Below, in pieces: positions 1-23,210 of a stretch of DNA of 64,000 nt. Position 1 is the stretch's first letter, and each line of letters starts with the position of its first letter. Source of the stretch: Dictyostelium discoideum (Eukaryota); contig CM000153.2 of assembly GCA_000004695.1 (NCBI GenBank), positions 320,001 to 384,000 of the forward strand, read 5' to 3'. The notes below the pieces were generated by a model. The model was not told where the DNA came from, made no database searches, and was given only the letters and a program-made list of their open reading frames with translations. The position numbers and the translations under genes are program-made.

Positions 1-2601
1 TTTATTTGGTGAATAAATTGTACCATTATCAAATTGAAGTTGGAAATCTGTATAATCATAGCCATTGTATTTATCCAATAAGAAATCAGAACTAACTAAA
101 ATAGTATTATTACTGAAAGTTGAAAATTGTGCTAAACCTCCATCAATTGTTAAATTTTTAGGTAATGGTGGTTGTATAGCTAATGTTTTTGAATCTTTAG
201 TAAATGTAAAAATTTTGTATTTATTAAAAATTGTATTTGTATTAAATTGTTTTACAATTGTACCAGTTTGAGAGAATTGAGAATCTTGATTACTTTGTGG
301 TTCATTTATATTGATATATCCACCTAAACAATTACTACATGTAAACAATAGTTGGTCTTGGTCACTTGTAATTGTGAGATCTGGTACCCTTGTATATGAA
401 TAATCGTCACTATAAACATATACATATGAGAATTGATTAATAACTAAACTAAGTCTTGAACGATCGAAATAGGTTACTTGGTCACTAGAAACAGCAATTT
501 TACTATCATCTAAATAAAATTTATAATTTGATAATTTTGATACAAAGAGACCCTCCATTATTATAATACCATTTTCAATTGAATATCTATAAATAATTGG
601 ACGAACTAAATAATATAAAATGTTTTTTGTTAGTGTTAAATGTTAAATTAAATGTTTTGTATGATTGAAATTATAATTTTTGAATTTTTACAAATACTTA
701 CAGTTTAATCCATTTGTTAAAGTTTCGATATGATAATCATTATTAAATGAAAGTACATTTGTAGAATATGTATTTAATGTGAATGAAATGATATTTGGTT
801 CAATTAAAGTATAGTCTAAATCATTTCCATTTTTATCATTATATTTAATACTTGTTATTGGAAATAAAGAAAATGGAAATGAAAGATGTAATTGTACCTT
901 TTCTTGATTTTGAGTGATTGATGAAATCCACTTTACTGGTGGTTGATAGGTAAATAAATTTGAATGAACCAATTTATCTTTAATATAAATTGAAAAATTA
1001 CCATTACCATAACCACTTGGAATATTGAATTTACCTTGTGTTAATACACTATTATTCAAAGTATTATAATCCAATATACATATTGTACCATTTAAAAATT
1101 CTAATTTTCCTATAATATATGCTTGATTATCGTATATTTTTGGAATAAAATGGCCACTTATTGATACTATTGAATTACCATAAAATCCAAATATTTCATT
1201 GCCACTGATATTAACTTTTTGAAAATTAGTTGGTAACGGTAATGCACCAGATCGTCTATATGGATAAATCGGGGCTTCTAAATAAATTCCACTTAAAATG
1301 ATTCCTTTAGTGTCCAATTGGATTGGATAGTATGAATATTTTGTATAATTATTTGGCAATCCTATTGTTTTTGCACCAATACAATTTGTACAATCGATGA
1401 ACAGTAGATTAAAATCATTATCACACCATGAGTTTAATTTCATTTGCTGTTGTGGTTTTAAAATTGGAAATCTGTCAGATGAATAATCAAAGAGTGAAAT
1501 AAAAAAGTAGTTTTCAACATAATCTGTAGAGTTTACCACCAATGTTGTTGAATTGAATGATATTATATTTGATTGGCTTAATATGTGTTTACTTTCGAAA
1601 TTTAATATATATGCTGATAAAAAAATTTTAAAAAATACACCATTTACTGTAATAATATCACCATTGTTTTCACAACTATTGATTATTGGTTCTATAAAAA
1701 GTTAAAATGAACATATTAGAATTTTATAGTTGAAGATAAAAGTGGTGGTAGTATGAAATATTAATTTTTTTAAAAACATAAATTATACATACTAATTGGT
1801 AAAACTTCAATTGCTTCACCATTATTTATTGAAATTAATTTTGAAGAATTTTCATCTAGTGTAAAACGTAAAATATTTGGTTGAACTAATGAATATTTAA
1901 TTGATGTTCTTTTTGTATTTTTATATGGACATACATATTTTGTTTTAATATAAACATTTACATAACAATCATAAAAATTTACAGATGGTGCAGTAAAGTT
2001 AAATTCTTGATTTTCATCACATTGAAAATAATAATTTCTAGTGGAATATCCGCAAATATTATTATTATTACTGTTATATCTTAATTTCAATGCATAATCG
2101 TCAAAACCAAATTTACCAAATTCAAATTCTTCTGTGTTCAAATTTCCAGTTGTATAAAAACTCCCCCTATATATTAATCCAGATTGACTTCTATAGGAAG
2201 ATAGATTTGAACAAATAGAAAAACGGTGCTCATACTAATTAATTTATAAAAATAAAATTTAATAAAATGTAATGCCCAGTACATTAATAAAGCTTCATTA
2301 TACTTACTTGGCTATAATGATCTGGAAAACTGTGATCAACATTTTTTAATTTTGATAAATTCAAAGAAAAATAATTTGAATTAAAAATACATGAATTTAA
2401 AACGGATGTACCATTAAAATCATAATTATAATATAAATTATCTAAACTTGTTATATTAAATAAATATAAAGGTTGAGTTAATTCAATTTCAACATTACTT
2501 CGAGTTTGAATAATTGATTTAAAGATTGATTGACAATTTAATGTTGTAATAAAAAATAATAACAAAACATTTATTGATAATATTAAATTTGAATAATTCA
2601 T
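1..2601 (-). CDS. Secreted/GPI-type cell-surface glycoprotein with IPT/TIG-like repeats, family copy A. The C-terminal end runs off the window start. Four exons at approx 2308-2601, 1793-2190, 701-1691 and <1-605.
   Basis: ORFs 2284..2601 (signal peptide MNYSNLILSINVLLLFFITTLNCQS), 1770..2141 and 688..1542 are colinear with copies B and E. So is an unlisted minus-strand frame over 1-600 (MEGLFVSKLSNYKFYLDD...FTCSNCLGG...). GTAAGT/GTATGT donors and AG acceptors bound three AT-rich introns. There are many NxS/T sequons, and IPT-like segment starts (PIINSISKIKDGN..G.GF) resemble those of the Tgr-like gene at 50291. Confidence 0.7.
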
Positions 2602-3289
2602 TCTTTATTATATAATTTTTATTAATAAAATAAAAATTAAATGATTAGAAAAAAAAAAAAAAAAAAAAAATTGTTTTGAAAGGATTATTGAGAATTATTG
2701 GAAAAAAAAAAAATAATAAAAAATAAAATTAATAAAATTAATAAAAAAATCTTAGTAAACTAAGACTGGGGAAGTAAAAATAAAAAAAATAATTAAAATA
2801 AAAAAAAAAAAAAAACTTTTCGGCAATGAAAAAAAATTTCGCAGTTTCCTAGGATTTCAAAAAAAAAATCTTTTTAATGTTTCGTTTTTATAATCCCAAA
2901 AATAGATTTTTTCTTAAAATTACCAGTGCTGAGAACATATTTTTTTTTTTTTAATAATTAAATAAAATAAAATAAAATAAATTAGAATACTCAGTTTTCT
3001 ATATATTCCAATTTGAAATCAAATCAAATCATATCAAATGAAACCAATTTAAATTAATTTAAATCAAATAAAAATAGTGTCATACGTCAAAAAAATAAAA
3101 AAAAAAAAAAAAAATAAAAAAATAAATGCAAGATATCTTTTTTATTTATTTGTTTTTTTTTTTCATAATTAATTTTTGAAAGTTAAATTTTTAAAAATTG
3201 TTTTTTTTTTTATTTTTTTTTTTTTTATTTTTTTTTTTTTATAATTTTCACTTGGGATTTATATTTTTTTTTTTTATTTTCCACACACA

Positions 3290-3682
3290 ACATGCTTACA
3301 GATAACAGTTATATATGCATTTAAATATTCATGGACTATATCAAAAATAATAAACATGTTGTACAAAAAAACAAAAAGAGAGAATCAACTACATAAAGAT
3401 TAAATCATTAATTTAATTCAATTGGTAATTGTTTAATAGTTTTATTTTCTGTTATTAATTATAAATTATTATATATTCTAATGGTGATAAATTAATTAGT
3501 TAGCATGAATTTAGATAGACAATGTGTTAATAAAGTTCAACAACCAAAAAATAAACCATCTTCACTTGTTTATATGGAACATCCAATTCAAGAGAATGAT
3601 ATTTTTGTGGTTAGACTTTAGCATAATATATTTGATCAAGAGAGATAGTCAAAGCAATCAAAGAGGTAAACTCTATTGAATC

Positions 3683-3720
<38 letters not shown>
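3290..3720. repeat. Roughly 400-bp intergenic repeat element ending in ...caaagaggtaaactctattgaatcaata followed by (AAT)n. A second copy lies at 8750-9130.
   Basis: Near-identical blocks at the two positions (ccacacacaacatgcttacagataacagttatata... and ...attctaatggtgataaattaattagttagc...). This is part of a roughly 5.4-kb tandem duplication unit made of gene A or B plus its upstream region. Confidence 0.7.
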
Positions 3721-3761
<41 letters not shown>

Positions 3762-4700
3762 GTGATGGTAATAATAATAAAAGTAATAATAGTGGCTTCA
3801 GTGAATTAGTTCTTAAATTGAAGAAATTAAAGGTATTCTAGAATTAATGAAATCAATTACTTCGACAACAACAGAAACAACAAAAACAATTACCACTCAA
3901 GAAAGTACTGATTCTTTATGAAATCACTCAAGTACTTTTGATCATTGATGGTTTGGATCAATTGGACACAAGAAGAATCGTACTCATACTTTGGATTAGT
4001 TATCAATTACATTACTAATTAAATTGATGGTTCAAGATTAGATGGTCATCATACTCAAAGTTGTAGATGTGTGCACCAACTGAAAATCATTGTCGCACCA
4101 ATGAAAGTTAAAGATGGTCATAGTTTAATATTGGGTAAATTTGAAGAATTCCTTAACAAATTGGATGAATCTGCAATCAATAATCAAATGTCAATAATAA
4201 TAATAATATTAGAAATTTAGTATGAAATGAAAGAGAGAAAAATTCATTCAATGCACCAATTTGTTTAATTAAAAACAAAGATATCTTGGAGCATATTAAA
4301 GATTTCTGTGATATAGTTTCTCCAACTCATATCCTTTCAAATCAACCAACCAAATGTTAAATAAAGCACAAATTAAAGATAGTTGTAAACAAAACACGTG
4401 ATGGCTCAAAAATTGCCTGCTGGTAAAAATTCAATCATTCATATTTTCAAAGCATCTAATGGTTCAGAGTTGTTATAAAATTGGTTTGTCATTCGAATTG
4501 GATCTCTTGTTTCACCTTGGCAAGTCAAGTTGGGATGATACAGTGATAGTTTGGGATTTCATGGTAATACTGTTGTTACCATTGCACATATCAAGTGGGA
4601 TCAGTTCTTGGTGTCGACTACCAAGCGCTTGTCAATATCTCTGTGGTCTTGTTATTCAAGTCTGTAGTTTAAAAAATACATCAATATTAGAAAAATAATA
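3540..4700 (+). pseudogene. Decayed coding relic with a WD40-like segment (...GKSSWDDTVIVWDF...) and many in-frame stops.
   Basis: Higher GC than the surroundings and a C/A-rich strand bias. ORF 4459..4698 contains a WD-repeat-like 'SWDDTVIVWD' and 'HISSGISS' (compare GHTSSVTSV), but the flanking frames are full of stops. The segment is present upstream of copy A and absent from the equivalent place upstream of copy B. Confidence 0.35.
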
Positions 4701-4811
4701 TAAATAAAGATGAAACAAAATAATGTTTTTTTAGAGTCTTTGTTTATTTATTATTTTATTGTTTCTTTTTTATTGAAAGTAAATTTGATAGTTTTATTAA
4801 TTTATTTTTAT

Positions 4812-7800
4812 TTATTGAAGCAATATTGATATTAGAATAAAAATAGTAGCAACTAGTTTGGAGAAAACTGAATGTAAACTAATATCACTGCTTAACATTT
4901 CATCGTCAGAATAAGTTTGGGTATAAACGGGCTCAAATTGGAAATTTGAATTTTGGTGGCTTCTAAGTTGTATTTCAATTGGATCATTATCAAAATATAT
5001 TTCCAATTTTTCATGTATTGAAAATTGGCAATTAATATTTTGATTTATTATTTCAGGATAACAATCGATTGTTTCCGAAAGGGTACGATTCTCTTTATAT
5101 AAACTATTTGCTTTAAAAGTACCACGTACAATTACATTAAAGAAACCATCCCCATTCATTTTAATATTTCCATCCTTAATTTTTGATATTGAATTAATTA
5201 TTGGTTTTTTTGGATAATAGAATGGGATTGGATTTATTATAAACTTTCTTCTATTTTCAAAAGTAACAAATACACTAAAATTACCAGATCCATATGCAAA
5301 TGGTGCATTTATTTGATATCTATAGTTTTGATCTGATTTTGATAAAAATTGTTTTTTTGCAGAATGAATTGTACCATTATCAAATTGAAATTGGAAATCG
5401 ATATTATCAAAACCATTGTATTTATCCATTAAGAAATCAGCACTTACTAAAATAGTATTATTACTGAAAGTTGAAAATTGGGCCAAACTTCCATCAACTA
5501 TTACATTTGAAGGTAATGGTGGTTGAATAACTATTGTTTTTGAATCTTTTGTAAATGTAAAAATATTGTATTTGTTAAATATTGTTTTTGTATTAAATTG
5601 TTTTACAATTGTACCAATTTGAGAGAATTGAGAATCTTGATCAGTTTGTGGTTCATTTATATTGATAGATCCACCTAAACAATTACTACATGTAAATAAT
5701 AATTGGTCTTGGTTACTAGTAATCGTGAGATCTGGTACCTTAGTAAATGAATAATCATCAATATAAACATATACATGTGAAGCCTTATTCATAATTAAAC
5801 TAAGTCTAGAACTATCGAAATAGGTTATTTGATCGCTGGAAATAGAATTTTTACTATCATCTAGATAAAATTTATAATTTGACAAATTTGACATAAAGAC
5901 ACCCTCCATTGTTATAACATCATTTTGAATTGAATAGTTATAAATAATTGGACGGACTAAATAGTATATATTATGTTTTTTTGTTAGTGTTAATATGTTA
6001 AATGTTTTGTATGGTTCAAAAATAATAATTTTTGAATGTTTACAAATACATACAGTTTAATTCATTTGTTAAAGTTTCGATATGATAATCATTATTAAAT
6101 GAAAGTACATTTGTAGAATTTGCATTTAATGTGAATGAAATAATATTTGGTTCAATTAAAGTATAGTCTAAATCTATTCCATTTTTATTATTATATTTAA
6201 TACTTGTTATTTGAAAGAAATAAACTGGGAATGAAAGATGTAATTGTACCTTTTCTAGATTTTGGGTGACAGATGATATCCACTTTGATGTTGTATAACT
6301 AAATGGATTTAAATGAACCAATTTATCTTTAATATAAATTGAAAAATTACCATTACCATAGCCACTTGGAATACTGAAATTACCTTCTGTAAATACTCTA
6401 TTACTCAAAGTTTTATAATCCAATATACATATTGTACCATTTGAAAATTCTAATTTTCCTATAATATATGCTTGATTATTATACATTTTTGGAATAAAAC
6501 TGCCACTTATTGAAACTGTTGAGATAACATTAAATTCGAATATTTCATTGCCACTGAAACTAACATGATTAAAATCAGTTGGTAACTGTAATGCACTTGA
6601 TCTTTTATATGGATAAATAGGGGCTTCTATATAAATTTCACTATCATCATTCAAAGTGATATAAATATCACTAACTTCAATTGGAGATGAATCTACTACT
6701 GTATAATTATATAACAATCCTTTTGTATTTGCACCAATACAATTTTTACAATAGATGAAAATTGAATTAAAAAAACCAGATTCATGATCATATCTTGAAC
6801 TTAATACCATTTGTTGTTGTGGCTTTAAAATTGGATAGCTTTCAGATTTAATTCCGAAAAGAGAAATAAAAAAGTTATTGTCAACGTAACCTGTTGAGTT
6901 TACTACCAATGTTGTTGAGTTGAATGATGTTATCATCGGTGGTTTTATTTGATAACCACCGTAATAAAATGTATAATTTGATAATACATTTTTAAAAAAT
7001 ATACCTTTTACTGTAATAACATCACCATTATTTTCACAATTATTGATTACTGGCTCTAAAAGAAGTTTTTTAAATTGTACTTATTAGTATTTTATAGGTT
7101 TTTTTGATTATAAAAGTAGTAGTGGTAGGAAATATTAATTTTTTTAAAAACATAAATTATACATACTAATTGATAAATCTATAGTTTTATTACCATTTAC
7201 TGAAATTAAATTTGAAGAATTTTCATCCAATGTGTAACGTAAAATATTTGGTTCAATTAATGAATATTCAATTGGTGTTCTTTTATTATTTTTATATGGA
7301 CATACATATTTTGTTTTAATATAAACATCTACATTACAATCATTAATGGATGCATATTTTGAGGAAGTAAAGTTAAACTCTTGTCTTTCATCACATATAA
7401 AATAATAATCTCTAGACATTAGATCGGTACCACCAAAAATATTTGGACAAGAAATGTGTGGATTGGTATATGTTAATTTTAATTTATAATTATCATTATT
7501 TATACCCAATTTAAAACTTTCTGTATTTAAGTATCCAGTTGGAAATGAAAATTTCCCATATTCTTCAGCACCAGATTGACTGTTTGTAAAAGATAGATTT
7601 GAACAAATTGAAAAAAAGTGTTTATACTAATTGGTTTAAAAAATAAAAGTTAATAAATGTAAAATGTAATATTTTATAAAGTTTCATTTTACTTACATCA
7701 GGGTTATAATAGTCTGGAAAACTATAGTCAATATTTTTAAATTTTGATAAATCAAAAGAATAATAAGTTGAATTAAAAATACATGAGTTTAAAACAGATG

Positions 7801-7990
7801 TACCATTAAAATCATAATTATAATATAAATTATCTAAACTTGTAATATTAAATAATTTTAATGGTTCGGCCAACTGAATTTCAACATTACTTCCAGTTTG
7901 ATTAATTGAAGTATAGATAAACTGACTATTTAATTTTGTAATAAAAATTAAAAAAAAAATAGTTGATAATATAAAATTTGAAAATTTCAT
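4812..7990 (-). CDS. Secreted/GPI-type cell-surface glycoprotein with IPT/TIG-like repeats, family copy B (apparently intact). Four exons at approx 7687-7990, 7167-7579, 6054-7055 and 4812-5957.
   Basis: ORFs 7622..7990 (signal peptide MKFSNFILSTIFFLIFITKLNSQ), 7144..7509, 6040..6936 and 4812..5909. GTAAGT/GTATGT donors close each exon, and acceptors (ttttacaaacag|, cttttag|, ctatttag|) open the next. The C-terminus ends in a hydrophobic tail (SVFSKLVATIFILISILLQ) typical of a GPI-attachment signal. Confidence 0.75.
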
Positions 7991-8056
7991 TTTTTATTAT
8001 GTGCTATTTAATAAAATAAAAATATATTGAAAAAAAAAAAAAAAAAACTATTTATA

Positions 8057-8697: not shown

Positions 8698-8748
<51 letters not shown>

Positions 8749-8749
8749 T

Positions 8750-9064
8750 TCTAACACAAAAAATGCACACAGAAACAGTTATATAAAACATGTTTTCAAA
8801 TATTTATAGACTATATCAAAAAATAAGCATTGCATGTTTTACGAAAAAAAAGAGTATCCCATAAAGATTAAATCATTAATTTAATTCAATTGGTAATTAT
8901 TAAATAATTAGTTTATTTTCTATTATTAATTAATTATATATTCTAATGGTGATAAATTAATTAGTTAGCTTAAAATATAGATGGACAAGTTGCTAATAAA
9001 GGTCAATCTTCAGGTGTTTGTATGGAATCAAAGAGGTAAGCTCTATTGAATCAATAGAATTTTA

Positions 9065-9130
<66 letters not shown>
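8750..9130. repeat. Second copy of the roughly 400-bp intergenic repeat plus the (AAT)n microsatellite at 9066-9158.
   Basis: Alignable by eye with 3290-3720. The (AAT)n run is about 30 units. Confidence 0.7.
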
Positions 9131-9163
<33 letters not shown>

Positions 9164-9419
9164 TTAATTAAATAAATAAACAAAAAGAATAAATAAATAA
9201 AAACAATAAATAAAAAAAAAGATAATAAAATAAAACTACAATCTTAATTGAAAAAAAAAAAAAAAAAAAAAAAAAATAAATAAATAAAATAAAACTAGTT
9301 TTAATAAATCTAAAACTTTGTAAATATGTTTTGAAAAAAAAAAAAATATTTTATTTTATTGTTTAACTAAATTTGGTTTAAAATTCAAATAAAGAACTAT
9401 CTACTCTAAAAGAGAAACC

Positions 9420-9910: not shown

Positions 9911-10651
9911 TTAAAATAATATATTTATTAATAAAAATGCTATTAAGAAAATATTTAAAATTAATTTTGACGATTTTGATGAATTTGGTTCATTTGATTC
10001 CTTTGGTTCATTTGAAGAATTTGGTTCATTTGATGAATTTGGTTCATTTGATTCATTTGGTTCTGGATTTGGTATTGAATTGAAGCAGGATAAATATTGA
10101 TCATTTTTAGTTTTTGAATATAAAGCATCTTTACAATCAATGGAACCATAGGATTCAGTACTTCCAATTCCAGTACAATCTTTTGATGGGTAGGTTGTAA
10201 TAGTGTAATTTTGAAAAGGATCATAATTGATTTTAATATTTGTACCACATACTGATGAACATTTACCTATTGTAACTATTTTATCATCGACACAAGGACC
10301 TTTTACAAATTTGAAAGAATAATATTTTGAAATTAATGTTGAACAAGTTATTTCCCCATCTATTACTTGATTATTATATCCATCATAGCAATTAAAATTA
10401 ACAATAAATGGATAATTTGTGTTTTCATAGTAACCTTGATTTTTGCAATCATAATCTGTAAAGAATGAAATTTGAAAATATGAATTGTACATTTTTGATA
10501 TCTTTGCATTTTTATTACAAAATATGCCACATTCATCCAAGTTTAATACACCATTTTCACAATTCTTTGCTTGTATTTTAAATACATCATATTGTGATGA
10601 CACAATTAAAAAAATATTAAATAAAAATAAGATTAAAAAAATAAATTTCAT
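9911..10651 (-). CDS. Small secreted Cys-rich, GPI-type glycoprotein with a Ser-rich (NEPNSS)n linker. It is ponticulin-like. Copy P1.
   Basis: ORF 9911..10651 is 246 aa. It has an N-terminal signal peptide (MKFIFLILFLFNIFLIVSSQ), about 16 Cys in a roughly 150-aa domain, and a C-terminal hydrophobic tail (KLILNIFLIAFLLINILF) of the kind that signals GPI attachment. Its paralogues are at 18450..19091 and 15121..15700. Confidence 0.7.
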   Translation of the reverse strand: MKFIFLILFLFNIFLIVSSQYDVFKIQAKNCENGVLNLDECGIFCNKNAKISKMYNSYFQISFFTDYDCKNQGYYENTNYPFIVNFNCYDGYNNQVIDGEITCSTLISKYYSFKFVKGPCVDDKIVTIGKCSSVCGTNIKINYDPFQNYTITTYPSKDCTGIGSTESYGSIDCKDALYSKTKNDQYLSCFNSIPNPEPNESNEPNSSNEPNSSNEPKESNEPNSSKSSKLILNIFLIAFLLINILF

Positions 10652-10788
10652 GTTTGTTGGAAAAAAAGAAAAATGACAAGAAAAAAAAAAAAAAAAAAAA
10701 AATATTATTTGTTATTTTTTAAAAAAAAAAAAAATTTATTTTTGGGACCTGTAAATTTAAGAAAAATATCCTTTTTTCCAATCTAAAA

Positions 10789-10866
10789 AACCGTTTTTTT
10801 CTTGGGTTTGCAAAAAAAAGTTTCGGCAAACAATAATTTTGAAAACCCAAGAAAAAAACGGTTTTT
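10789..10866. promoter_or_regulatory. Perfect 24-bp inverted repeat (aaaaaccgtttttttcttgggttt ... aaacccaagaaaaaaacggttttt) in the divergent intergenic region between P1 on the minus strand and IPT copy C on the plus strand.
   Basis: Read directly from the sequence. The arms are separated by about 30 bp (gcaaaaaaaagtttcggcaaacaataattttgaa). The adjacent ...ggacctgtaaatttaagaaaaatatcc... motif recurs upstream of other family copies at 2800-2940 (reverse orientation) and 15760-15860. Confidence 0.5.
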
Positions 10867-11059
10867 TTTTTGTTTGCCAAAACTTTTTTTTTTTTTTTAT
10901 ATATTTTTAATCGAATTTTAGTTTTTTAATTAATTTTTTTTATTTTTTTTTTTTTTATAAATTAATTCTCACCAATCCTTTCAAAACAAATTTTTTTTTT
11001 TTTTTTTTTATTTATTAATTTTAATTTTTATTTCATTAATAAAAAGTATATAATAAACA

Positions 11060-14000
11060 ATGAATTATTCAAATTTAATAATATCAATAAATTTTTTGTT
11101 ATTATTTTTTATTACAACATTAAATAGTGAATCAATCTTTAAATCAATTTATCAAACTGGAAGTAATTTTGAAATTAAATTGACTCAACCATTATATTTA
11201 TTTAATATTACAAGTTTAGATAATTTATATTATGATTATGATTTTAATGGTACATCAGTTTTAAATTCATGTATTTTTAATTCAAATTATTTTTCTTTGA
11301 ATTTATCAAAATTAAAAAATGTTGATCATAGTTTTCCAGATCGTGACTCTATGACAAATATTGAGCACCTTTTTTCAATTTGTTCCGAACTGTCTTCCTA
11401 TAGCAGTCAATCTGGTTTTATTAAAAGTGAAAGAAAGGAATTTGTTGCAACTGGAGATTTAAATAAAGAAAGTTTTAAATTTGGTAGACTTGGTGTTGAT
11501 AATTATGCATTGAAATTAACATATTCCAGTAATAATTTGTTTTATTGTGAAAGATATGGTGGTACCACTAGAAATTATTATTTTCAATGTGATGAAAATC
11601 AAGAATTTAACTTTACTGCACCATCTGTAAATTTTTATGATTGTAATGTAGATGTTTATATTAAAACAAAATATGTATGTCCATATAAAAATACCAAAAA
11701 AACACCAATTAAATATTCATTAGTTCAACCAAATATTTTACGTTTTACAATGGATGAAAATTCTTCAATTTTAATTTCAGTAAATAATGGTAATGCAATT
11801 GAATCTTTACCACCAATCAGTATGTATAATTTATTTTTTTAAAAAAATTAATATTATTTCCTACCACTACTTTTATCTTAAACTATAAAATTCTAAATGT
11901 TCATTTTAATTTTTTTATAGAGCCAATAATCTATAGTTGTGAAAACAATGGTGGTGATATTATTACAGTAAATGGTTTATTTTTTGAAAATTTTTTATCA
12001 AATTATACATTAAATTTCGAACCGTTTCTGATAGACATATTTGATCCATCAGTAATAATATCATTCAATTCAACAACATTGGTAGTAAACTCTACAGGTT
12101 ATGTTGATAATTACTTAATTATTTCTTTCTTTTATTATCAATCTGAAAGATTTCCAATTTTAAAACCACAACAGCAAATGGAATTAAGTTCATGGTATGA
12201 TGATGATTTTGATATGCTGTACAGAATGTACAAATTGTATTGGTGCAAAAACAATAGGATTGCCATATACTTATACAATACCTTCATACTACCCATTCTC
12301 ATTTTACACTGAAAAAATCATTTTAAGTGGAATTTATTTAGAAGCCCCAATCTATCCATATAAAAGATCAAATGCATTACCGTTACCAACTAATTTTCAA
12401 AAAGTTAATATCAGTGGTAATGAAATATTCGAATTTAATGGTAATTCAATAGTATCAATAAGTGGCCGTTTTATTCCAAAAATATACGATAATCAAGCAT
12501 ATATTATAGGAAAATTAGAATTTTTAAATGGTACAATATGTATATTGGATTATAATACTTTGAATAATAGTGTATTAACACAAGGTAAATTCAATATTCC
12601 AAGTGGTTATGGTAATGGTAATTTTTCAATTTATATTAAAGATAAATTGGTTCATTCAAATGCATTTACTTATCAACCACCATCAAAGTGGATTTCATCA
12701 ATCACTCAAAATCAAGAAAAGGTACAATTACATCTTTCATTTCCATTTTCTTTATTACAAATAACAAGTATTAAATATAATGATAAAAATGGAAAAGATT
12801 TAGACTATACTTTAATTGAACCTAATATCATTTCATTGACATTAAATACATATTCTACAAATGTACTTTCATTTAATAATGATTATCATATCGAAACTTT
12901 AACAAATGGGTTAAACTGTAAGTAAATACTATCATACAAATTATTTAATTTTACATATAACACTAACAAAAAACATTTTATATTATTTAGTTCGTCCAAT
13001 TATTTATAGCTATTTTAGTAATTCAATTGAAAATGGTACGAATATAATAATGGAGGGTCTCTTTGTATCAAAATTGTCAAATTATAAATTTTATTTAGAT
13101 GATAGTAAAATTGCTGTTTCTGGTGACCAAGTAACCTATTAAACAATTCTCATATGTATATGTTTATAGTGACGATTATTCATATACAAGGGTACCAGAT
13201 CTCACAATTACAAGCGAGCAAGACCAACTATTGTTTACATGTAGTAATTGTTTAGGTGGATATATCAATATAAATGAACCAGAAAGTAATCAAGATTCTC
13301 AATTCTCTCAAATTGGTACAATTGTAAAACAATTTAATACAAATACAATTTTAAATAAATACAATGCTTTTACATTTACCAAAGACTCAAAAACAATATT
13401 TATACAACCACCATTACCTTCAAATGTAAAAATTGATGGAGGTTTAGCTCAATTTTCAACTTTCAGTAATAATAATATTTTAGTTAGTGGTGATTTTTTA
13501 TTGGATATATTCAATCGTTTTGATTATACAAATTTCCAACTTCAATTTGATAATGGTACAATTTATTCACCAAATAAACAGATTTTATCAAAATCAGATC
13601 AAAACTATGTTTATCAATTAAATATACCATTTGCATATGGATCTGGTAATTTTAGTGTATTTTCTACTCTAGAAAATGGTAGAAAGTTTATTATAAATTC
13701 AACTCCATTCAATTATCCAAAAACACCAATAATTAATTCAATATCAAAAATTAAAGATGGAAATCTTAAAATAATTGGAGATGGTTTCTTTGATGTAGTT
13801 GTTTTTGGTTCTTTTAAAACAACATTTAAAAATATAACAACTGGTCTTTTTTCAGATACAATCGAATGTCATTCTCAAATAACTCAACATCAAAACATTA
13901 TTTGCCAATTTACAATGAATCAAAACTTTAGTTTAGTATATTCTCAAGATACTCCGATTACAATACAAATTAAAAGCTCCAAATACTCACAGCACCAATT

Positions 14001-14220
14001 TGAACCAGTTTATACCCAAACTTTTTTCAATAATTCAAATCCAAATTCTAATTCAAATTCTAATTCAAATTCAAATTCAAATTCAAATTCAAATTCAAAT
14101 TCAAATTCAAATTCAAATTCAAATTCAATTTTAATTTCAAATTCAAATTCAAATTCAAATTTAGTTTTCTCCAAATTTGTAGCAACTATTTTTATTTTAA
14201 TATCAATATTGTTTCAATAA
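11060..14220 (+). pseudogene. IPT/TIG-like glycoprotein family copy C. It is disrupted by a frameshift in exon 3 near 12200-12240 and by a deletion with a stop in exon 4 near 13140.
   Basis: ORFs 12079..12312 and 12197..12925 overlap in different frames at the homologous position, where the other copies read ...DNDFNLLFIDCTNCIGAKTIGLP.... Exon 4 has lost ...FDSSRISLIMNQ... and reads VTY*. Intron 1 is absent: ORF 11060..11842 reads straight through exon 1 into exon 2. The C-terminus carries an (AATTCA)n expansion that encodes (NS)18. Confidence 0.7.
14036..14150 (+). repeat. Hexanucleotide (AATTCA)n microsatellite inside copy C exon 4, encoding an NSNSNS... run.
   Basis: Direct reading. It is absent at the same place in copies B and E. 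Confidence 0.85.
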
Positions 14221-14569
14221 ATAAAAATAAATTAATAAAATTATCAAATAAAATATTATTTTGTATCATCTTTTATAATCGTCTTTTTAATGTTCATAAA
14301 AGGAATTCTGGAAACAAACTAAAATTTGAACAGTTTTTTTTTTTTTTTAAAATATTCTATTATTTTGGGGACTCGGTTATTTCTCCTCACTCACCTCGTT
14401 TAGGATTATAAAAAATAAATAAATTTACTCTTTACAAAACCAAATGAAATTCAAAATAAAAAAAATATGTATTTATTTTATTTTAATAAAAAATTTTTAT
14501 TATTATTCTCATATGATTTTATTGTTTAAGTTCTTTCTGAACATGCTATTTTTTTTTGTAAAGTTTTTT

Positions 14570-14752
14570 TTATTATTTTCCATTTCTTTTCTTTTCTTTT
14601 TCTTTTCTTTTTCTTTTTTTTTTTTCTTTTTCTTTTCTTTTCTTTTCCTTTCTATTACTATTACTATTACTATTACTATTACTATTACTATTACTATTAC
14701 TATTACTATTACTATTACTATTACTATTACTATTACTATTACTATTACTTCG
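14570..14752. repeat. Compound microsatellite: (CTTTT/CTTTTT)n followed by about 20 units of (ATTACT)n.
   Basis: Direct reading: attactattactattact... over 14652-14752. Confidence 0.9.
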
Positions 14753-15000
14753 TAAAATGACAAAAATAAAAAAATAAAAAAAATAAAAATAAAAAAACAA
14801 ATAAATAAAAAAGATATATTACATTTATTTTTTTTTTTTTTTTATTTTTTTTTTATTTTTTTGGATTGACACTATTTTTATTTGATTTGATTTCTTTTAA
14901 TTTAATTTATTGTTAAAACCATTCAAGTTTGGGCACTTTTCAAAATATGAAAATTATATAAAAATATTTGAAATTACATTTGCGCAAATTTGGATGGTTT

Positions 15001-15118
15001 TCACAATAATTTAATTTAATTTAATTTAATTTGGTTCGATTTGATTTAATTTGATTTGATTTGGTTTGATTTGGTTTGATTTGATTTGGTTTAATTTGAT
15101 TTGATTTGATTATTATTT
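15001..15118. repeat. Pentanucleotide (ATTTG/ATTTA)n satellite-like tract.
   Basis: Direct reading: ttaatttaatttggttcgatttgatttaatttgatttgatttggtttg... Confidence 0.85.
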
Positions 15119-15120
15119 TT

Positions 15121-15700
15121 TTAAAATAATATATTTTTAGTTTTTGAATATAAAGCATCTTTACAATCAATGGAACCATAGGATTCAGTACTTGCAATTC
15201 CAGTACAATCTTTTGATGGGTAGGTTGTAATAGTGTAATTTTGAAAAGGATCATAATTGATTTTAATATTTGTACCACATACTGATGAACATTTACCTAT
15301 TGTAACTATTTTATCATCGACACAAGGACCTTTTACAAATTTGAAAGAATAATATTTTGAAATTAATGTTGAACAAGTTATTTCCCCATCTATTACTTGA
15401 TTATTATATCCATCATAGCAATTAAAATTAACAATAAATGGATAATTTGTGTTTTCATAGTAACCTTGATTTTGGCAACTATAATCTGTAAAGAATGAAA
15501 TTTTAAAAAGTTCATCGTACACCTTTAAAATCTTTGCATTTTAATACAAAATATGCCACATTCATTCAAGTTTAATACACCATTTTCACAATTCTTTGCT
15601 TGTAATTCAAATACATCATATTGTGATGATACAACTAAAAAAATATTAAATAAAAATAAGATTAAAAAAATAAATTTCATATTTGTTGGTAAAAACATTA
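15121..15700 (-). pseudogene. Truncated, frameshifted duplicate (P2) of the ponticulin-like gene P1.
   Basis: Bases 15125-15480 are almost base-identical to 10085-10440. The N-terminal part (MKFIFLILFLFNIFLVVSSQYDVFELQAKNCENGVLNLNECGIFC...) runs into a stop. The Ser-rich linker and GPI tail are missing. Confidence 0.7.
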
Positions 15701-16079
15701 ACGTATTAAAAAATAAAAAAAAAAAAAATATTATATATTATTTTTAAAAAAATATATTCTCGGCACTGGTAAATTTAAGAAAAAATCTCTTTTTGGAATT
15801 ATAAAAACGAAACACGTTAAAAAGTTTTTTTTTTTTGAAATACCAAGAAAAATAAAAAGTTTTTTTTTTTTTTTTATTTTAATTATTTTTTTATTATTTG
15901 TTTTTCCAATTTTTCTAGAACCTTGGTTTACAAAGATTTTTTATTATTTTTTTTAATTTTTTTAATTTTTTTTTTTTTTTTTTTTTTGCAGATTCCCGAT
16001 CATCTATGATAATCCTTTCCAAAAAATTGTTTTTTTATTTTTTTTTTTTTTTTTAAATTTTAATAAATTTTATTTTAAA

Positions 16080-18328
16080 AATCAATTTGTTCCAAACTGC
16101 CTTCCTATAGCAGTCAATCTGTTATTATATATAAAAAGTCATTTTTTACAACTGGAGATTTAAATAAAGAAAAATTTGAATTTGGTAGATTTGGTGTTGA
16201 TAATTATGCAAGTCCTGGTTGTTCAACTAGAAATTATTATTTTCAATGTGATGAAAATCAAGAATTAACTTTACTGCACCATCCAACGTAAATTATTTTG
16301 ATTGTAATGTAGATGTTTATATTAAAACAAAACATGTATGTCCATATAAAAATACCAAAAAAACACCAATTAAATATTCATTAATTCAACCAAATGTTTT
16401 AGTTTTACATTGGATGAAAATTCTTCAAATTTAATTTCAGTAAATAATGGTAATGTAATTGAATCTTTACTTCAATATACCAAGTGGACATGGTAAAGGT
16501 ACTTTTTCAATTTATATTAAAGATAAATTGGTTCATTCGAATTCATTAAATTATCAACCCCATCAAAGTGGATATTATCAATCACTCAAAATCAAGAAAA
16601 GGTACAATTACATCTTTCATTTCCATTTTCTTTATTACAAATAACAAGTATTAAATATAATGATAAAAATGGAAAAGATTTAGACTATACTTTAATTGAA
16701 CCAAATATCATTTCATTCACATTAAATACATATTCTACAAATGTACTTTCATTTAATAATGATTATCATATTGAAGCTTTAACAAATGGATTAAACTGTA
16801 AGTATTTGTAAACATTCAAAAAATATAATTTTATTCATACAAAATATTTAATTTTATATTTAACACTAACAAAACATTTTATATTATTTAGTTCGCCCAA
16901 TTATTTATAGATATTCAATTGAAAATGGTGCTAAAATAACAATGGAGGGTCTCTTTGTATCAAATTTGTCAAATTATAAATGGAAAAGATTTAGACTATA
17001 CTTTAATTGAAACAAATATTATTTCATTCACATTAAATACATATTCTACAAATGTTCTTTCATTTAATGATGATTATCATATTGAAACATTAACAAATTC
17101 ATTAAACTGTATGTATATTTTAAAGATTAAAAACTAATCAAAATTTTTTAAATTCATAACTCACCAAAAAACATTTTATATTATTTAGATCGTCCAATTA
17201 TTTATAGTTATTCAATTCAAAATGGTATTATAACAATGGAGGGTCTCTTTGTATCAAAATTATCAAATTATAAATTTTATCTAGATTTTAGTAAAATTGC
17301 TGTTCCCAGCGATCAAGTAACCTATTTCGATAGTTCAAGAATCAGTTTAATTATGAATCAGGTTTCACATGTATATGTTTATAGTGATGAGAATTTATTT
17401 ACCATGGTACCAGATATCACGATTACAAGCCAGCAAGACCAATTATTGTTTACATGTAGTAATTGTTTAGGTGGATATATCAATATAAATGATCCAGAAA
17501 GTAATCAAGAATCTCAATTCTCTCAAATCGGTACAATTGTAAAACAATTTAATACAAATACAATTTTTAATAAATACAATGCTTTTACATTTACAAAAGA
17601 TTCAAAAACTATAGTTATACAACCGCCACTACCTTCAAATGTAAAAGTTGATGGAAGTTTAACTTAATTTTCAACATTCAGCAATAATACTATTTTATTT
17701 AGTGGTGATTTCTTATTGCATAAATACAATGGTTTAAATTATACTGATTTCCAATTTCAATATGATAATGGTACAATTTATTCGGCAAAAAAACAAATTT
17801 TATCAAAATCTGATCAAAACTATAAATATCAAATAAATGCACCATTTGCATATGGATCTGGTAATTTTAGTGTATTTGTTACTTTTGAAAATGGTAGAAA
17901 GGTTATAACAAATTCAATTCCATTCAATTATCCCAAAAAACCAATAATTAATTCAATATCAAAAATTATGGATCAATCGACATTATACAATAAGTGGCGA
18001 TGGTTTCTTTGATGTTATAGTAATTCCTTCTTTTAAATCAAACATTTATTCAGAAACAATCGAATGTCATCCTGAAATAATAAATCAAAATATTATTTAC
18101 CAGTTTGAAATGAAACAAGAATCCTCGGTAGATTCTCAATATCCAATTGAAATAAAAATTGAAAGCCTTGAATACTCACCTTTCCAATTTGAACCATTAT
18201 ATACCCAAACCTTTTTTTATGACCCAAATTCTGATTCAGAAATTTTAAAGAGTGATATTAGTTTACATTCAGTTTTCTCCAAATTATTTGCATCTCTTTT
18301 TGTTCTAATATCAAAATTGTTTCAATAA
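16080..18328 (+). pseudogene. IPT/TIG-like glycoprotein family copy D. It is heavily fragmented by deletions, an internal duplication and frameshifts.
   Basis: Short ORFs 16459..16644, 16955..17137, 17236..17667, 17716..18012 and 18110..18328 each match pieces of exons 2-4 of the intact copies. The block 16955-17137 repeats the exon-3 tail already present at 16640-16800. Confidence 0.7.
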
Positions 18329-18449: not shown

Positions 18450-19091
18450 TTAAAACAATAAATTTATTAATAAAAATGTTAATAATATAAATTTGTGGAT
18501 TGTAATTAATTTAGAAGATATTGATCCATTTGATTCTATATTTGGAGTTGATTTTAAACAGGATAAATATTGATCGTTATTAGTTTTTGATAATAATTGA
18601 TTTTTACAATCAATTGATCCATAGAATTCAGTACTTCCAATTCCAGTACAATCATTCGAAAGGTAGGTTGTAATAATGTAATTTTGAAAAGGATCGTAAT
18701 TGATTATAATATTTTTGCCACATACTGATGAACATATACCCAAAAAAATTAATTTATCATCGACACAAGGACCCTCAACAAATTTGAAAGAATAATATTT
18801 TGAAATTAATGTTGAACAAATTATTTCCCCATATCTACCAATAGTATTAATTTCATTACTGCAATTAAATGGAATATATGGACGAGGGTCTTGATAGCAA
18901 ATAGCATCAGTATAGACTTTGATTGATTTTACGTTCTCGATAAATAAATATTCATTACAAAATTTACCACATTCTTGAAGAGTTAATGTGGTATTTTCAC
19001 AGCCCTTTGATTGTAATTTAAATACATCAAATTCTGATGATACAATTAAAAAAATATTAAATAAAAATAGGAATAATAAAATATATTTCAT
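18450..19091 (-). CDS. Small secreted Cys-rich, GPI-type glycoprotein, ponticulin-like. Copy P3.
   Basis: ORF is 213 aa with signal peptide MKYILLFLFLFNIFLIVSSE. The Cys framework is conserved with P1 (…CSTLISKYYSFKFVEGPCVDDK…CSSVCG…DCTGIGSTEFYGSIDCK…). The C-terminal hydrophobic tail is FILLTFLLINLLF. Confidence 0.7.
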   Translation of the reverse strand: MKYILLFLFLFNIFLIVSSEFDVFKLQSKGCENTTLTLQECGKFCNEYLFIENVKSIKVYTDAICYQDPRPYIPFNCSNEINTIGRYGEIICSTLISKYYSFKFVEGPCVDDKLIFLGICSSVCGKNIIINYDPFQNYIITTYLSNDCTGIGSTEFYGSIDCKNQLLSKTNNDQYLSCLKSTPNIESNGSISSKLITIHKFILLTFLLINLLF

Positions 19092-19769
19092 GTTATAAAA
19101 TAAAAGAAAAAAAAAATAAAAGAAAAAAAAAAATAAAAGAAAAAAAAAAATAAAAAAAAATAAAAATTAAATAAAAGAAAAAAAAAAAAATATATTTTCA
19201 AATAAAATCGATTACAAATTCTATTAACCCATCTTTTTTTTTTTCGAAATGAAAAAGATTTTTTTTCTTTAAAATCAAAGAATTATAGCGAATTTTTTTT
19301 TTTCGTATTTTTGCAATGTTAAAAAAAAAAAAAGAAAATGTCAAAAATCAATCACAAATTAATTTTTTTTTAATTATTTTTTTTTTATATGTTAAAAAAT
19401 AAACTGATACCATTTGACACTTTCAAAAGCCAAAAAAACGGAGGATTTTTTACCAAAGATTTTTTTTTTTTTTCCAATTATTATTTTTTTTTTAATTTTC
19501 TTAATTAAAATTTTTAGAAAACTAAGATTTTTTTTGTAAAAAGCCGATTTTTATCCCAAAAAAATTTTAGAAAACAAAGATTTTTTTATTTTTTTTCTAA
19601 TAATATAAACCAGAATAATTCATTTAAAAGTCAGAAAAGAAAAAAAAAGTTATTTAATATATTATTATTTTTTTTTTTTTGTCCATAAATATTTTTTTTT
19701 ATTTTTTTATTTTTTTTTCCTTAACAATTATTTAATTATTTTATAAATAAAAAGATTATTTAATAAAAA

Positions 19770-22700
19770 ATGAATTTTCCAAAATTTATATTATTAAATA
19801 TTTTATTATTAATTTTTGCCTCGACATTAAATAGTCAATCAATCTTTAGTTCAATTAATCAAAATGGAAGTAATGTTGAAATTAAATTAGTTCAACCATT
19901 ATATTTATTTAATATAACAAATTTAGATAATTTATATAATGATTATGATTTAAATGGTACATCTGTTTTAAATTCATGTATTTTTAATACAACATATTTT
20001 TCTTTGGATTTATCAATATTAAAAAATATTGACTATATTTTTAAAGATTCCAATAGCAAAGTAAGTAATTGAAACATAATAAAAATTTTAAACATTACAT
20101 TTTATTAACTTTTATTTTTGAAAACTAAATAGTATCAACACCTTTTTTCAATTTGTTCCCGAACTAAACTATATTCTGCTCAGTCTGTTATGCTTAATGA
20201 AAATGGGCAATCTTTTACAACTGGAAATTTGAATACAGAGAAATTTGAAATCGGTAGGTTCGGTTTAAATAATTATTCATTAAAGTTAACCTATACCAAT
20301 CCTGCATTCTCCTTATGTTCTAATAGTGGTTCAACTAGAAATTATTATTTTCAATGTGATGAAAATCTAGAATTTAACATCACATCCCCAAACTCGAAAA
20401 ATGTAAATTATTATGATTGTAATGTAGATGTTACTATCGCAACAAAATATGTATGTCCATATAAAAATATCAAAAAATCATCAATTAAATATTCATTAAT
20501 TCAACCAAATATTTTACGTTTTACATTGGATGAAAATTCTTCAAATTTAATTTCAATAAATAATGGAAAAGTATATGAAGTTTTACCAATTAGTATGTAT
20601 AATTTATATTTTTTAAAAAAAAAAATTAAAATTTCCTACCACCAATTTTATCTTCCACTACTACTACTAATAATACTACTTTTATCAACAATAAAAAATT
20701 CTAATACACTCATTTCATTAAACTTTTACATTTTATAGAGCCAATAATCCATAGTTGTGAAAATAATGGTGATATTATTACAGTAAATGGTTTATTTTTT
20801 AAAAATATATTATCAAATTATACATTTGGTTTCGATGGTCAATTAACAATGAACCGTTCGAATATAATATCATTCAATTCAACAACATTGGTATTAAACT
20901 CTACAGGTTATGTTGACAATAACTTTTTTATTTCACTCTTTGAAAATAAATCTGATAGCTATCCAATTTTAAAACCACAACAGCAAATGGTATTAAGTTC
21001 ATGGTATGATTATAGTTTTCGTAAGGAACGTCTTAACATTGATTGTACAAATTGCCTTGGTGCAAAAACAATAGGAATACAAAATATCTATACAAAATAT
21101 GCACATTCAATAAAAATACCCCCTGAAGATATCAATTTTAGTGGAATCTATTTAGAAGCCCCTATTTATCCTTTTAAAAGATCAAATTTATTGCCATTAC
21201 CAACTAATATTATAGGAGTTAATGATAATAAAATATTTCAATTTAATGGAATTTCAATAGTTTCAATAGCTGGTTATTTTATTCCAAAAATGTATGATAA
21301 TCAAGCATATATTACAGGAAAATTAGAATTTTCAAATGGTACATTATGTATATTGGATTATTATACTTTGGATAGTAATGTATTAACACAAGGTAAATTC
21401 AATATTCCAAGTGGTTATGGTAATGGTAATTTTTCAATTTATACTAAAGATAAGTTGGTTCATTCAAATTCATTTACTTATCAACCACCATCAAAGTGGA
21501 TATCATCAATCACACAAAATTTAGAAAAGGTACAATTACATCTTTCATTTCCATTTTCTTTTTTTCCAATTACAAGTATTAAATATAATGATAAAAATGG
21601 AAAAGATTTAGACTATACTTTAATTGAACCAAATATCATTTCATTCACATTAAATACATATTCTACAAATGTACTTTCATTTAATGATGATTATCATAAC
21701 GAAACTTTAACAAATGGATTAAACTGTATGTATAGATTAAAAATTATAATTTAAATTTAAAATTTTTAATTTTATAACTCACCAAAAAACATTTTATATT
21801 ATTTAGATCGTCCAATTATTTATAGTTATTCAATTCAAAATGGTATTATAACAATGGAGGGTTTCTTTATATCAAATTTATCAACTTATAAATTTTATCT
21901 TGATAATAGTAAAAATGCTGTTTCCAGCGATCAAATAACCTATTTCGATAGTTCAAGAATCAGTTTAATTATGAATCAGGCTTTATATGTATATGTTTAT
22001 TGTGATGACTATTCGTTTACAATGGTACCAGATCTCACAATTACAAGCCAGCAAGACCAATTATTGTTTACATGTAGTAATTGTTTAGGTGGATCTATCA
22101 ATATAAATGAACCCCAGAGTAATCAAGATTCTCAATTCTCACAAATCGGTACAATTGTAAAACAATTTAATACAAATACAATTGTTAATAAATACAATAT
22201 TTATACATTTACTAAAGATTCAAAAACAATAATTATTCAACCACCTTTACCTACAAATTTAATATTTGGTGCAAGTTTACCTAAATTTTCAACATTCAGT
22301 AATAATACTATAATAATTAGTTCTGATTTCTTATTGGATAAATATAATGGTTTTGATTACACAGATTTCCAACTTCAATTTGATAATGGTACAATATATC
22401 CAGTAAAAAAACAACTTTTATCAAAATCAGCTCAAAACTATAAATATCAAATAAATGCACCATTTGCATTTGGATCTGGTAATTTTTGTACATTTATTAC
22501 TTTTGAAAATAATAGAAAGTTAATAAATTCAATTCCATTCTATTATCCAGCAAGACCAATAATTAATTCAATATCAAAAATTAAGATTGGTGGTTTTAAA
22601 ATAAGTGGTGATGGTTTCTTTAATGTATCTTTAATTGCTTCTTTTAAAAAAAATTTGGTAAATACAACCACTGGTGTTATAAAAAATGTTATCCGATGTG

Positions 22701-22966
22701 ATCCTCAAACAACCCAAAGTCAAAATTTAGATTGTGAATTTATAAATACAATACATACAGATAAATTAAATGAATTTCCAATTACAATACTAATTAAAAG
22801 CCAAAGTAATTCACTGTTCAGATTTGAACCATTTTATATCCAATCTTATTTTTATTATCCAAATTCTTATTCATATTATGAAATGAACAATGATATTAGT
22901 TTACATTCGGTTTTCTCCAAATTAGTTGCAACTATTTTTATTATAATATCAATATTGCTTCAATAA
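19770..22966 (+). CDS. IPT/TIG-like glycoprotein family copy E, intact, about 966 aa. Four exons at approx 19770-20060, 20133-20592, 20739-21725 and 21807-22966.
   Basis: ORFs 19770..20072, 20190..20738, 20849..21754 and 21854..22966. Donors are gtaagt at 20061, gtatgt at 20593 and gtatgt at 21726. Acceptors are aactaaatag|, ttttatag| and ttatttag|. The exon phases (0, 1, 1) are consistent with the ORF-track frames. Confidence 0.75.
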
Positions 22967-23210
22967 ATAAAATAATTTATAGAATTATCAAGTAAACTTT
23001 CAATAAAAATAAAATTAAAAATAAAATAAAAACACTAAACATTTAATATTGTAAACAACCATAGTTTTTAATAAAATAAAAAAAATAATAAAAAATAAAA
23101 TTAGTTGGGTGGTGTGAATATGTTAAGATAATAAATAATAAATTAATATTCCCCCTTACAATTAATTTTTTTTTTTTTTTTAATTATTTTTTACCTATTC
23201 CTTAAACAAT

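Follow-up and report, generated by a model that had tools for sequence, protein, structure and literature searches.

What do five copies of one gene, crowded into 23 kb of chromosome 4 of Dictyostelium discoideum, specify, and how did some of them come to be intact and others ruined? They occupy the first part of a stretch of 64,000 nt (GenBank assembly GCA_000004695.1, contig CM000153.2, positions 320,001 to 384,000 of the forward strand), which we call the window and in which all coordinates below are counted unless another source is named; its GC content is about 20% throughout. We hold it probable (roughly 0.6) that these large genes, as we will call them, encode a Dictyostelium-only family of secreted, surface-tethered glycoproteins with an MRH domain and immunoglobulin (Ig)-like domains, which duplicated as cassettes, underwent birth-and-death turnover and would serve in extracellular binding.

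An initial annotation, made from the nucleotide sequence, had listed five four-exon copies of about 3.2 kb in the first 23 kb. A tblastn search with the protein of copy E as the query recovered all five (A to E) and detected no similar sequence in the rest of the window. Their positions are as follows.

1-2601, minus strand: copy A, identical with DDB_G0283227, exons 2601-2308, 2234-1793, 1691-702 and 605-1
4812-7990, minus strand: copy B, corresponding to DDB_G0283229, exons 7990-7697, 7626-7167, 7079-6054 and 5956-4812
11060-14220, plus strand: copy C, a pseudogene (tblastn frame changes, three-frame segments, intron alignment and Tandem Repeats Finder, TRF)
16082-18328, plus strand: copy D, a heavily degraded pseudogene (tblastn, three-frame segments)
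19770-22966, plus strand: copy E, identical with DDB_G0283243, exons 19770-20060, 20133-20592, 20739-21725 and 21807-22966

Copies A, B and E are intact, while C and D are pseudogenes, and on this point the first description (B and E intact, A apparently so) agrees with the spliced models, all three of which are open. The four-exon model of copy E specifies 965 amino acids and is 100% identical to DDB_G0283243. Copy A is cut in exon 4 by the start of the window, leaving residues 1-777 of 970 inside; its spliced translation is exactly that part of DDB_G0283227, with GT and AG at all intron junctions. For copy B, a splice-site search yielded an open product of 974 amino acids including a signal peptide, the same length as the gene model in assembly GCA_054883475.1. 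The public AX4 model of DDB_G0283229 (dictyBase/NCBI) has 957 amino acids and differs at the N-terminus, where MAFKN replaces the signal peptide. The first exon of that gene (7990-7697, minus strand) encodes the conserved signal peptide, and the 974-residue form beginning MKFSNFILS agrees with the paralogues and with the newer annotation.

Copies A and B form a tandem on the minus strand, their start codons 5389 bp apart, which matches the 5.4-kb unit first proposed, and they share an intergenic repeat (located by blastn and TRF):

3218-3791, upstream of A: first copy of the repeat, ending in an (AAT)n microsatellite at 3683-3791
8702-9164, upstream of B: second copy of the repeat, with (AAT)n at 9065-9164

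The two are 71% identical over 554 bp (3218-3759 versus 8702-9159 in blastn), with 91% identity in the microsatellite part. Copies C, D and E do lie on the plus strand, as had been stated; the units of 3.3-4.6 kb ascribed to them do not hold, the spacing from C to D and from D to E being 4.7 and 4.1 kb (exon 2 to exon 2), and each unit also contains a second gene. These second genes are small, cysteine-rich and transcribed away from the large gene next to them; we refer to them as S genes.

9911-10651, minus strand: S1, an open reading frame (ORF) of 246 codons, head-to-head with C
15121-15680, minus strand: S2, damaged, head-to-head with D, found as two tblastn segments in different frames
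18450-19091, minus strand: S3, intact, an ORF of 213 codons, head-to-head with E

The S1 and S3 proteins (60% identical by tblastn) both have a signal peptide, 12 cysteines arranged in two 6-cysteine modules of matching spacing, and a terminal hydrophobic tail; S1 carries in addition a repeat of the (SNEPNS) type. The S2 segments are 93% and 84% identical to S1 (tblastn). Their reading frame is broken close to residue 50, and (ATTTG)n at 15009-15111 (TRF) stands in place of both the repeat and the hydrophobic tail at the C-terminus. The AX4 protein that best matches S1, DDB_G0283235 (170 amino acids; 85% identical over 74% of S1), is probably the public model of S2, to judge from its sequence, and we equate S3 by its equal length with DDB_G0283241, an AX4 homologue of S1 with 213 amino acids. 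Homologues of S1 number seven, all of them from Dictyostelium; a Pfam scan of S1 gave only chance-level matches, and a PDB sequence search with S1 alone no match above that level.

The arrangement of the S genes bears on how the cluster grew. The S2-D pair is colinear with S1-C over the full length of the spacer as well as the S gene (15133-16075 versus 10103-11033, 82% identity), and the alignment resumes at exon 2 of the large gene, so that D has lost essentially just exon 1 there. Since this match is continuous from the small gene across the spacer, a cassette of two genes was copied, at least in this duplication. In S3-E the layout is the same, albeit with a central spacer that can no longer be aligned with that of S1-C or S2-D. 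Pairing of an S gene with a large gene recurs to the left of the window and beside a copy of the DDB_G0283139 type in another assembly. We propose that the cluster expanded by tandem duplication and then underwent birth-and-death turnover, related lineages keeping or losing different copies. The copied unit of S1-C and S2-D comprised the large gene and an S gene, the product of which would be anchored in a similar way, on either side of a shared spacer of 0.4-0.7 kb.

The ruin of copies C and D is extensive, and the frameshifts, deletions and internal duplication first attributed to them were found again in a three-frame check. In copy C, a 69-bp deletion took out intron 1 and fused exons 1 and 2 (junction at about 11342-11365), and in alignments with A and with the C orthologue of another assembly the donor GTAAGT of that intron appears as ACAAAT. 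A frameshift follows in exon 3 (about 12210-12224), and exon 4 has lost 29 nt and is frameshifted at about 13140. In copy D, exon 1 is missing and exon 2 (16082-16470), itself frameshifted, abuts the final third of exon 3 (from 16471), the counterpart of 20587-21397 in E being deleted. About 300 bp across the boundary of exons 3 and 4 are duplicated (16471-16981 versus 16975 onward), and the damage is completed by a stop codon in frame at 17665 and by another frameshift at about 17970. Over 9768-33038 of the window, the differences in assembly GCA_054883475.1 amount to ten indels, all in homopolymer runs, and a single substitution within a run of T; none of these falls at a lesion, so the lesions of C and D, identical in that second assembly, are not sequencing errors.

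The copies had also been said to differ in the presence of intron 1 and in microsatellite-encoded tails, and both differences are real. Direct alignment shows that the C orthologue in assembly GCA_054859385.1 retains intron 1; a tblastn search had suggested that the intron was absent there too, which the alignment ruled out. The loss in C therefore belongs to the AX4 lineage alone and was a recent and imprecise deletion in the genome, not a cDNA-mediated event. As for the tails, about 22 copies of AATTCA at 14032-14161 (TRF) encode an (NS)n tract in C, a short (NS)n tail is present in A, and B, D and E have none. Downstream of C, (TTTCT)n and (CTATTA)n runs at 14444-14763 give spurious ORFs on both strands (e.g., a poly-IT peptide), which are not genes.

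The cluster continues beyond the window. An S/large-gene pair lies some 3.5-6.3 kb left of the window start (L003 16734-19467 in GCA_054883475.1), its large gene fragmentary, with only residues ~299-957 remaining in several frames. About 2 kb past this pair comes a gene encoding a hAT transposase dimerisation domain (L003 21691-23183). Neither the window nor the adjoining 10 kb on its left contains the intact paralogue DDB_G0283139, which is probably located further left on chromosome 4, beside another S gene, to judge by synteny with GCA_054859385.1. Of the seven large-gene copies near the locus, three are dead in AX4, namely C, D and the fragmentary one outside the window; among the S genes, S2 is damaged. 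More distant is DDB_G0274261, a D. discoideum paralogue of 367 amino acids on a contig of 8.48 Mb, presumably chromosome 2, that matches the family profile at positions 46-325 only (the N-terminal third, through the first IPT-like domain) and whose 90%-identity cluster includes members from four other assemblies; it may resemble an ancestral short form.

Copy content also differs between related lineages. Two further assemblies deposited as D. discoideum, GCA_054859385.1 and GCA_054859355.1, show about 12% difference from AX4 in flanking DNA. In the former, the C orthologue is intact (989 amino acids), and S2-D is absent, a relic of another copy being found instead; in the latter, S3-E is absent beside the pyruvate kinase flank. 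A neighbour-joining tree built on 546 ungapped columns joins each of four types (A, B, E and DDB_G0283139) to its orthologue in a different assembly (identity 81-91%, versus 68-77% between paralogues), while the D. firmibasis and D. dimigraforme sequences (one recovered from each species) fall outside the four types. The grouping of orthologues across assemblies, i.e., not by genome, together with the differing copy content indicates birth-and-death turnover, the pattern initially suggested for this locus. From the same tree, the family is placed as having expanded after the split of D. firmibasis, within the D. discoideum/D. citrinum group. A profile built from ten members matched 13 of 1.84 billion representative proteins, and 12 of these are family members, fragments or more distant relatives (one of them a EukProt gene model); the named sources of the family are D. 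discoideum, D. cf. discoideum, D. citrinum, D. firmibasis and D. dimigraforme.

Between GCA_054859385.1 and AX4, synonymous divergence (dS) is 0.08-0.10 in the flanking genes for pyruvate kinase and eIF2B-epsilon and 0.11-0.13 for E, S1 and S3. A dS of about 0.1 in housekeeping genes seems above what is expected within a species, and the assemblies deposited as D. discoideum may represent cryptic species or very divergent lineages. Excess polymorphism, at first suggested by an identity of 86% of E to ACTFIR_009918 (labelled D. discoideum), was dropped as a candidate, since dS is similar in the housekeeping genes alongside (0.08-0.10), which marks that assembly as a divergent lineage. In the same comparison, E has a ratio of nonsynonymous to synonymous divergence (dN/dS) of 0.47, S1 of 0.32 and S3 of 0.78, as against 0.00 and 0.06 for pyruvate kinase and eIF2B-epsilon. 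Across the large-gene family, orthologues give 0.47-0.59, which amounts to purifying selection, and paralogue pairs, with dS from 0.10 (A-C) to 0.26, give 0.55-0.89. Variation along the protein is mosaic: the most variable residues are 181-200, 341-380 and 861-940, and the most conserved are 441-460, 541-560 and the tail. Copies A (~1400-980) and C (~12400-12830) are 96-100% identical over about 400 bp, most of the gene being 82-95% identical; this tract may reflect gene conversion or may simply be the most constrained segment, since all pairs peak there.

Such rates, together with whole units missing in related lineages and the dead and damaged copies in AX4, might also describe a young and largely dispensable family that is drifting to loss and in which the intact copies persist for want of time. 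Its confinement to a few Dictyostelium species, with so few matches among the representative proteins, would fit that history as well. We nevertheless consider it improbable: besides the overall ratio of 0.47 in the E orthologue, residues 501-580 and 661-739 are strongly constrained (dN/dS 0.14 and 0.11, respectively), and four paralogue lineages have kept open frames of some 960-980 codons across lineages at a dS of about 0.1, as well as in D. citrinum, D. firmibasis and D. dimigraforme. If the family is maintained for a function at the cell surface, as we favour, its otherwise weak sequence constraint would fit a role that is partly redundant among the copies.

What that function might be depends on the architecture of the large protein. 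The layout below, given for copy E, is in part directly evidenced and in part modelled, and most of its boundaries are tentative:

residues 1-22: signal peptide
residues ~24-97: N-terminal beta domain
residues ~98-206: MRH-like domain
residues 251-580: module 1 (exon 3)
residues 581-828: module 2 (exon 4)
residues 829-935: C-terminal beta-sandwich
residues 949-964: hydrophobic tail

The protein would accordingly present, behind its signal peptide, one small beta domain, one MRH domain and two paralogous modules of about 330 residues, one per exon and each opening with an IPT/TIG-type domain, followed by a variable membrane-proximal beta-sandwich and a conserved hydrophobic C-terminal signal.

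The MRH assignment has two supports. The thirteenth match of the family profile is a metagenome protein (E = 2.9e-4) bearing the Pfam domains CIMR and PRKCSH_1 and aligned over profile positions 68-207, and the domain of exon 2 matches the repeats of the cation-independent receptor at profile level (E = 1.6e-4) with the cysteines aligned. In a Foldseek search, the full-length model of copy E matched the cation-dependent receptor (2rl8_A, 2rl9_A and 3k42_B; probability 1.00, template modelling score normalised to the target 0.57-0.59, 133-137 columns) and also domains 1-5 of IGF2R. The local confidence of the model (predicted local distance difference test, pLDDT) is 56-83 over this region, mostly above 65, which makes it moderate evidence for the MRH fold. 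Profile and fold together justify the UniProt label "MRH domain-containing protein" for a single N-terminal domain of this type. The combination of a lone unit of this kind with a long array of Ig-like domains behind it is not known from MRH proteins characterised so far.

Exons 3 and 4 are internal paralogues: they are colinear at about 25% identity, and both have C-x-x-C-x-G, PLP, F-x-N-G-T and G-x-G-N-F motifs. This colinear repeat and its two flanking introns, both of phase 1, indicate an ancient exon duplication. The segment starts had been called IPT/TIG-like, a description that stands, at the level of fold, for one of them, is likely for a second and is unproven for a third. The separate model of residues 250-336 (pLDDT 86.7) superposes best on solved IPT/TIG domains, and on that model the fold of this segment is of the IPT/TIG type. 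Residues 580-664 are 23-35% identical to it within the exon-3/exon-4 repeat, and the domain at 581 is likely to be IPT/TIG-like too, going by this similarity. For residues 829-935, the third of these, hhalign against the other two segment starts gave 15% probability, and the full-length model shows seven strands at a pLDDT of about 50. Profile searches of the PDB with 250-336 plus 580-664, with 828-930 and with the middle region returned nothing or chance-level matches. About 750 of the 965 residues are predicted to form an all-beta array, the best matches of which are Ig-like and fibronectin-type chains; the Foldseek matches of the full-length model to gp130, contactin, titin and others say merely "chain of Ig-like domains".

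The ends of the protein point to the cell surface. Copy E begins with a signal peptide (mean hydropathy 2.17), the large protein contains 21 N-x-S/T sequons, and the C-terminus reads ...SKLVATIFIIISILLQ, with nothing beyond the hydrophobic stretch and hence no cytoplasmic tail. In the putative C-terminal signal, 13 hydrophobic residues and a last Q come after N-D-I-S-L-H-S-V-F-S-K, of which the NDISLHS block is highly conserved. These features fit a predicted surface glycoprotein, probably anchored by glycosylphosphatidylinositol (GPI). As an extracellular binding protein, it would use its MRH domain for binding glycans or proteins and its Ig-like array as a stalk or interaction surface.

Several observations weigh against this reading of the cluster. 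The putative GPI signal was recognised by inspection. At an hmmscan threshold of E ≤ 1, four members (E, A, the D. firmibasis member and DDB_G0283139) gave no TIG, CIMR, PRKCSH or other Pfam domain, save for a single weak and unrelated match for DDB_G0283139 (HCBP_related, E = 0.19), and a Pfam scan of three more distant relatives gave nothing; the same TIG search works on sequence of such composition, since the Tgr-type ORFs of the window, presented below, match TIG (E = 1.9e-8 and 1.4e-11). The full-length AlphaFold model, nearly all beta-strand, has a pLDDT of 53 and is usable for the N-terminal third only. MRH domains usually act inside the secretory pathway, a poor fit to a role at the surface, and they bind sugar through Gln, Arg, Glu and Tyr. 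When the family is aligned by HMMER, its near-invariant Arg166 lies two positions off the receptor Arg, and no Glu or Tyr is aligned (the family has Y-D-C-x-V), so these residues are not clearly kept and lectin activity is doubtful. Finally, copies A and B have no S partner, and the cassette model fails to cover every copy.

The main rival to surface-tethered binding proteins turns the MRH domain the other way: the proteins would be intracellular lectins or cargo receptors of the secretory/lysosomal pathway, binding mannose-type glycans through that domain as mannose-6-phosphate receptors, OS-9 and glucosidase II beta do, with the C-terminus as an internal membrane anchor instead of a GPI signal. 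Although the profile and fold matches and the UniProt name lend themselves to it, we regard this as unlikely. The very uncertainty about the sugar-binding residues tells against a lectin, there is no cytoplasmic tail to hold sorting signals, and the greater part of the protein resembles chains typical of extracellular proteins. Receptors of core trafficking normally exist as one strongly conserved gene, whereas this family shows dN/dS of 0.5-0.9, several pseudogenes and differences in copy content between lineages.

Among the literature retrieved for ten gene identifiers, a single paper names a member (PMC12954983), and it contains no functional test of that gene. Its authors discuss DDB_G0283243, our copy E, in terms of such an intracellular lectin; the mutation D413Y in this gene (G-to-T, chromosome 4 position 341,224) is among four found in a huntingtin-null suppressor strain, and causality was not demonstrated there. 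The G of the Asp413 codon is position 21224 of the window, in agreement with a placement of the window at about 320,001-384,000 on chromosome 4, and the block of residues 401-420 in which it falls is moderately variable (0.55 mean pairwise identity).

In social amoebae, adhesion and kin recognition depend on surface proteins that evolve fast, a story dominated so far by the Tgr family, and the window contains two ORFs of that type at some distance from the cluster:

50291-52747, minus strand: Tgr-type ORF of 818 codons, with Pfam Ig_TgrO1 (PF24612; E = 7.9e-29) and TIG (PF01833)
53874-54434, plus strand: Tgr-type ORF of 186 codons, with Pfam TIG (E = 1.4e-11)

Their 5′ ends face each other about 1.1 kb apart. 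The resemblance of the large genes to the Tgr-type gene at 50291, which the initial annotation had noted, comes down to a start motif of about 24 residues: BLASTP of copy E against that ORF gave a best alignment of E = 0.17 over 24 residues, and Ig_TgrO1 was not found by hmmscan in the four members. Comparison by hhalign with a hand-made alignment of six TIG-like segments from the two Tgr ORFs gave 7% probability, a weak negative because that alignment is poor.

Nor did the suggested link to adhesion and self-recognition find specific support. On such a view, the S protein and the large protein would be a matched ligand-receptor pair for self/non-self recognition, diversifying between strains like tgrB1/tgrC1. 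The head-to-head pairing with a short shared spacer at S1-C, S2-D, S3-E and two further sites, the signal peptide and terminal hydrophobic tail on both proteins, the presence of at least one IPT-type domain, the variable blocks 341-380 and 861-940, and a membrane-proximal dN/dS near 1 among paralogues would all suit it. Positive selection in residues 829-935 was considered and rejected: an alignment based on DNA gave paralogue dN/dS of 1.3-1.7, and a protein-guided codon alignment lowered this to 0.9-1.4, with bootstrap P values of 0.09-0.65. The excess of dN over dS is thus not significant, and orthologues are under purifying selection (0.47-0.59). Moreover, between lineages E, S1 and S3 have a dS just slightly above that of the neighbouring housekeeping genes, which does not indicate ancient balanced alleles; significant similarity to Tgr proteins and Ig_TgrO1 are both lacking, A and B stand without an S partner, and no cytoplasmic signalling tail is present. 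We judge a recognition system of this kind very unlikely.

Long odds likewise attach to a broader version, independent of Tgr, in which the S and large proteins would be a binding pair, co-regulated from the shared spacer and duplicating and diversifying as a unit, i.e., a second surface recognition module, possibly for cell-cell or cell-matrix recognition in aggregation. Support for a Tgr-like recognition role with S as the partner is circumstantial.

Of the other features nearby, a small ORF on the minus strand directly downstream of E (23211-23579) has a hydrophobic C-terminal region, is unrelated to the large-gene or S family and is called as a gene of 172 amino acids in two other assemblies. 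A scan of the window for transfer RNA genes found none.

On present evidence, the cluster is an ordinary lineage-specific tandem family, the genes of which are already annotated as hypothetical proteins. It would nonetheless stand beside Tgr as another family of predicted surface proteins, so far unstudied, with fast turnover and without detectable sequence similarity to Tgr. It combines a lectin-type MRH domain with Ig-like repeats, and an S gene lies head-to-head with the large gene at three sites in the window and at two or more close by. The MRH domain, the internal duplication of exons 3 and 4, the co-duplicated S genes and the copies left of the window had all escaped the first description. 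If the proteins act at the surface, the locus offers a natural experiment in the birth and loss of a family, with intact, recently dead and long-dead copies and with differences in content between lineages.

Three known systems invite comparison. With Tgr, the family shares its Dictyostelium origin, a predicted extracellular location, Ig-like beta-sandwich repeats, a tandem or head-to-head arrangement, the motif P-x-I-x-S-I...G-x-x-x-I-x-G at the starts of domains and, in residues 250-336 of copy E, a fold modelled as IPT/TIG-type. It differs in its MRH domain, in the want of significant sequence similarity, in a between-lineage divergence not above that of the flanks, and in its bare hydrophobic tail; Tgr proteins carry a cytoplasmic tail, and the window's Tgr ORF ends in ...LLLSILIIIIISLFISNI. 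To the MRH proteins (the cation-dependent and cation-independent mannose-6-phosphate receptors, OS-9 and the beta subunit of glucosidase II), it is linked by the profile and fold of the exon-2 domain, yet it is multicopy and fast-evolving, does not clearly keep the Gln, Arg, Glu and Tyr, and remains below the threshold for Pfam CIMR and PRKCSH.

The closest parallel in mode of evolution is the general model of Nei and colleagues for birth-and-death multigene families of surface and recognition proteins. As in that model, there are tandem paralogues with interspersed pseudogenes, gains and losses are specific to lineages, paralogue lineages predate the split of the lineages, and the genes have not been homogenised as a whole. 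The locus departs from it in that one tract with 96-100% identity between A and C (about 21210-21630, counted in copy E) may have arisen by local gene conversion, and in that the duplicated unit, at least for S1-C and S2-D, is a head-to-head cassette of two genes.

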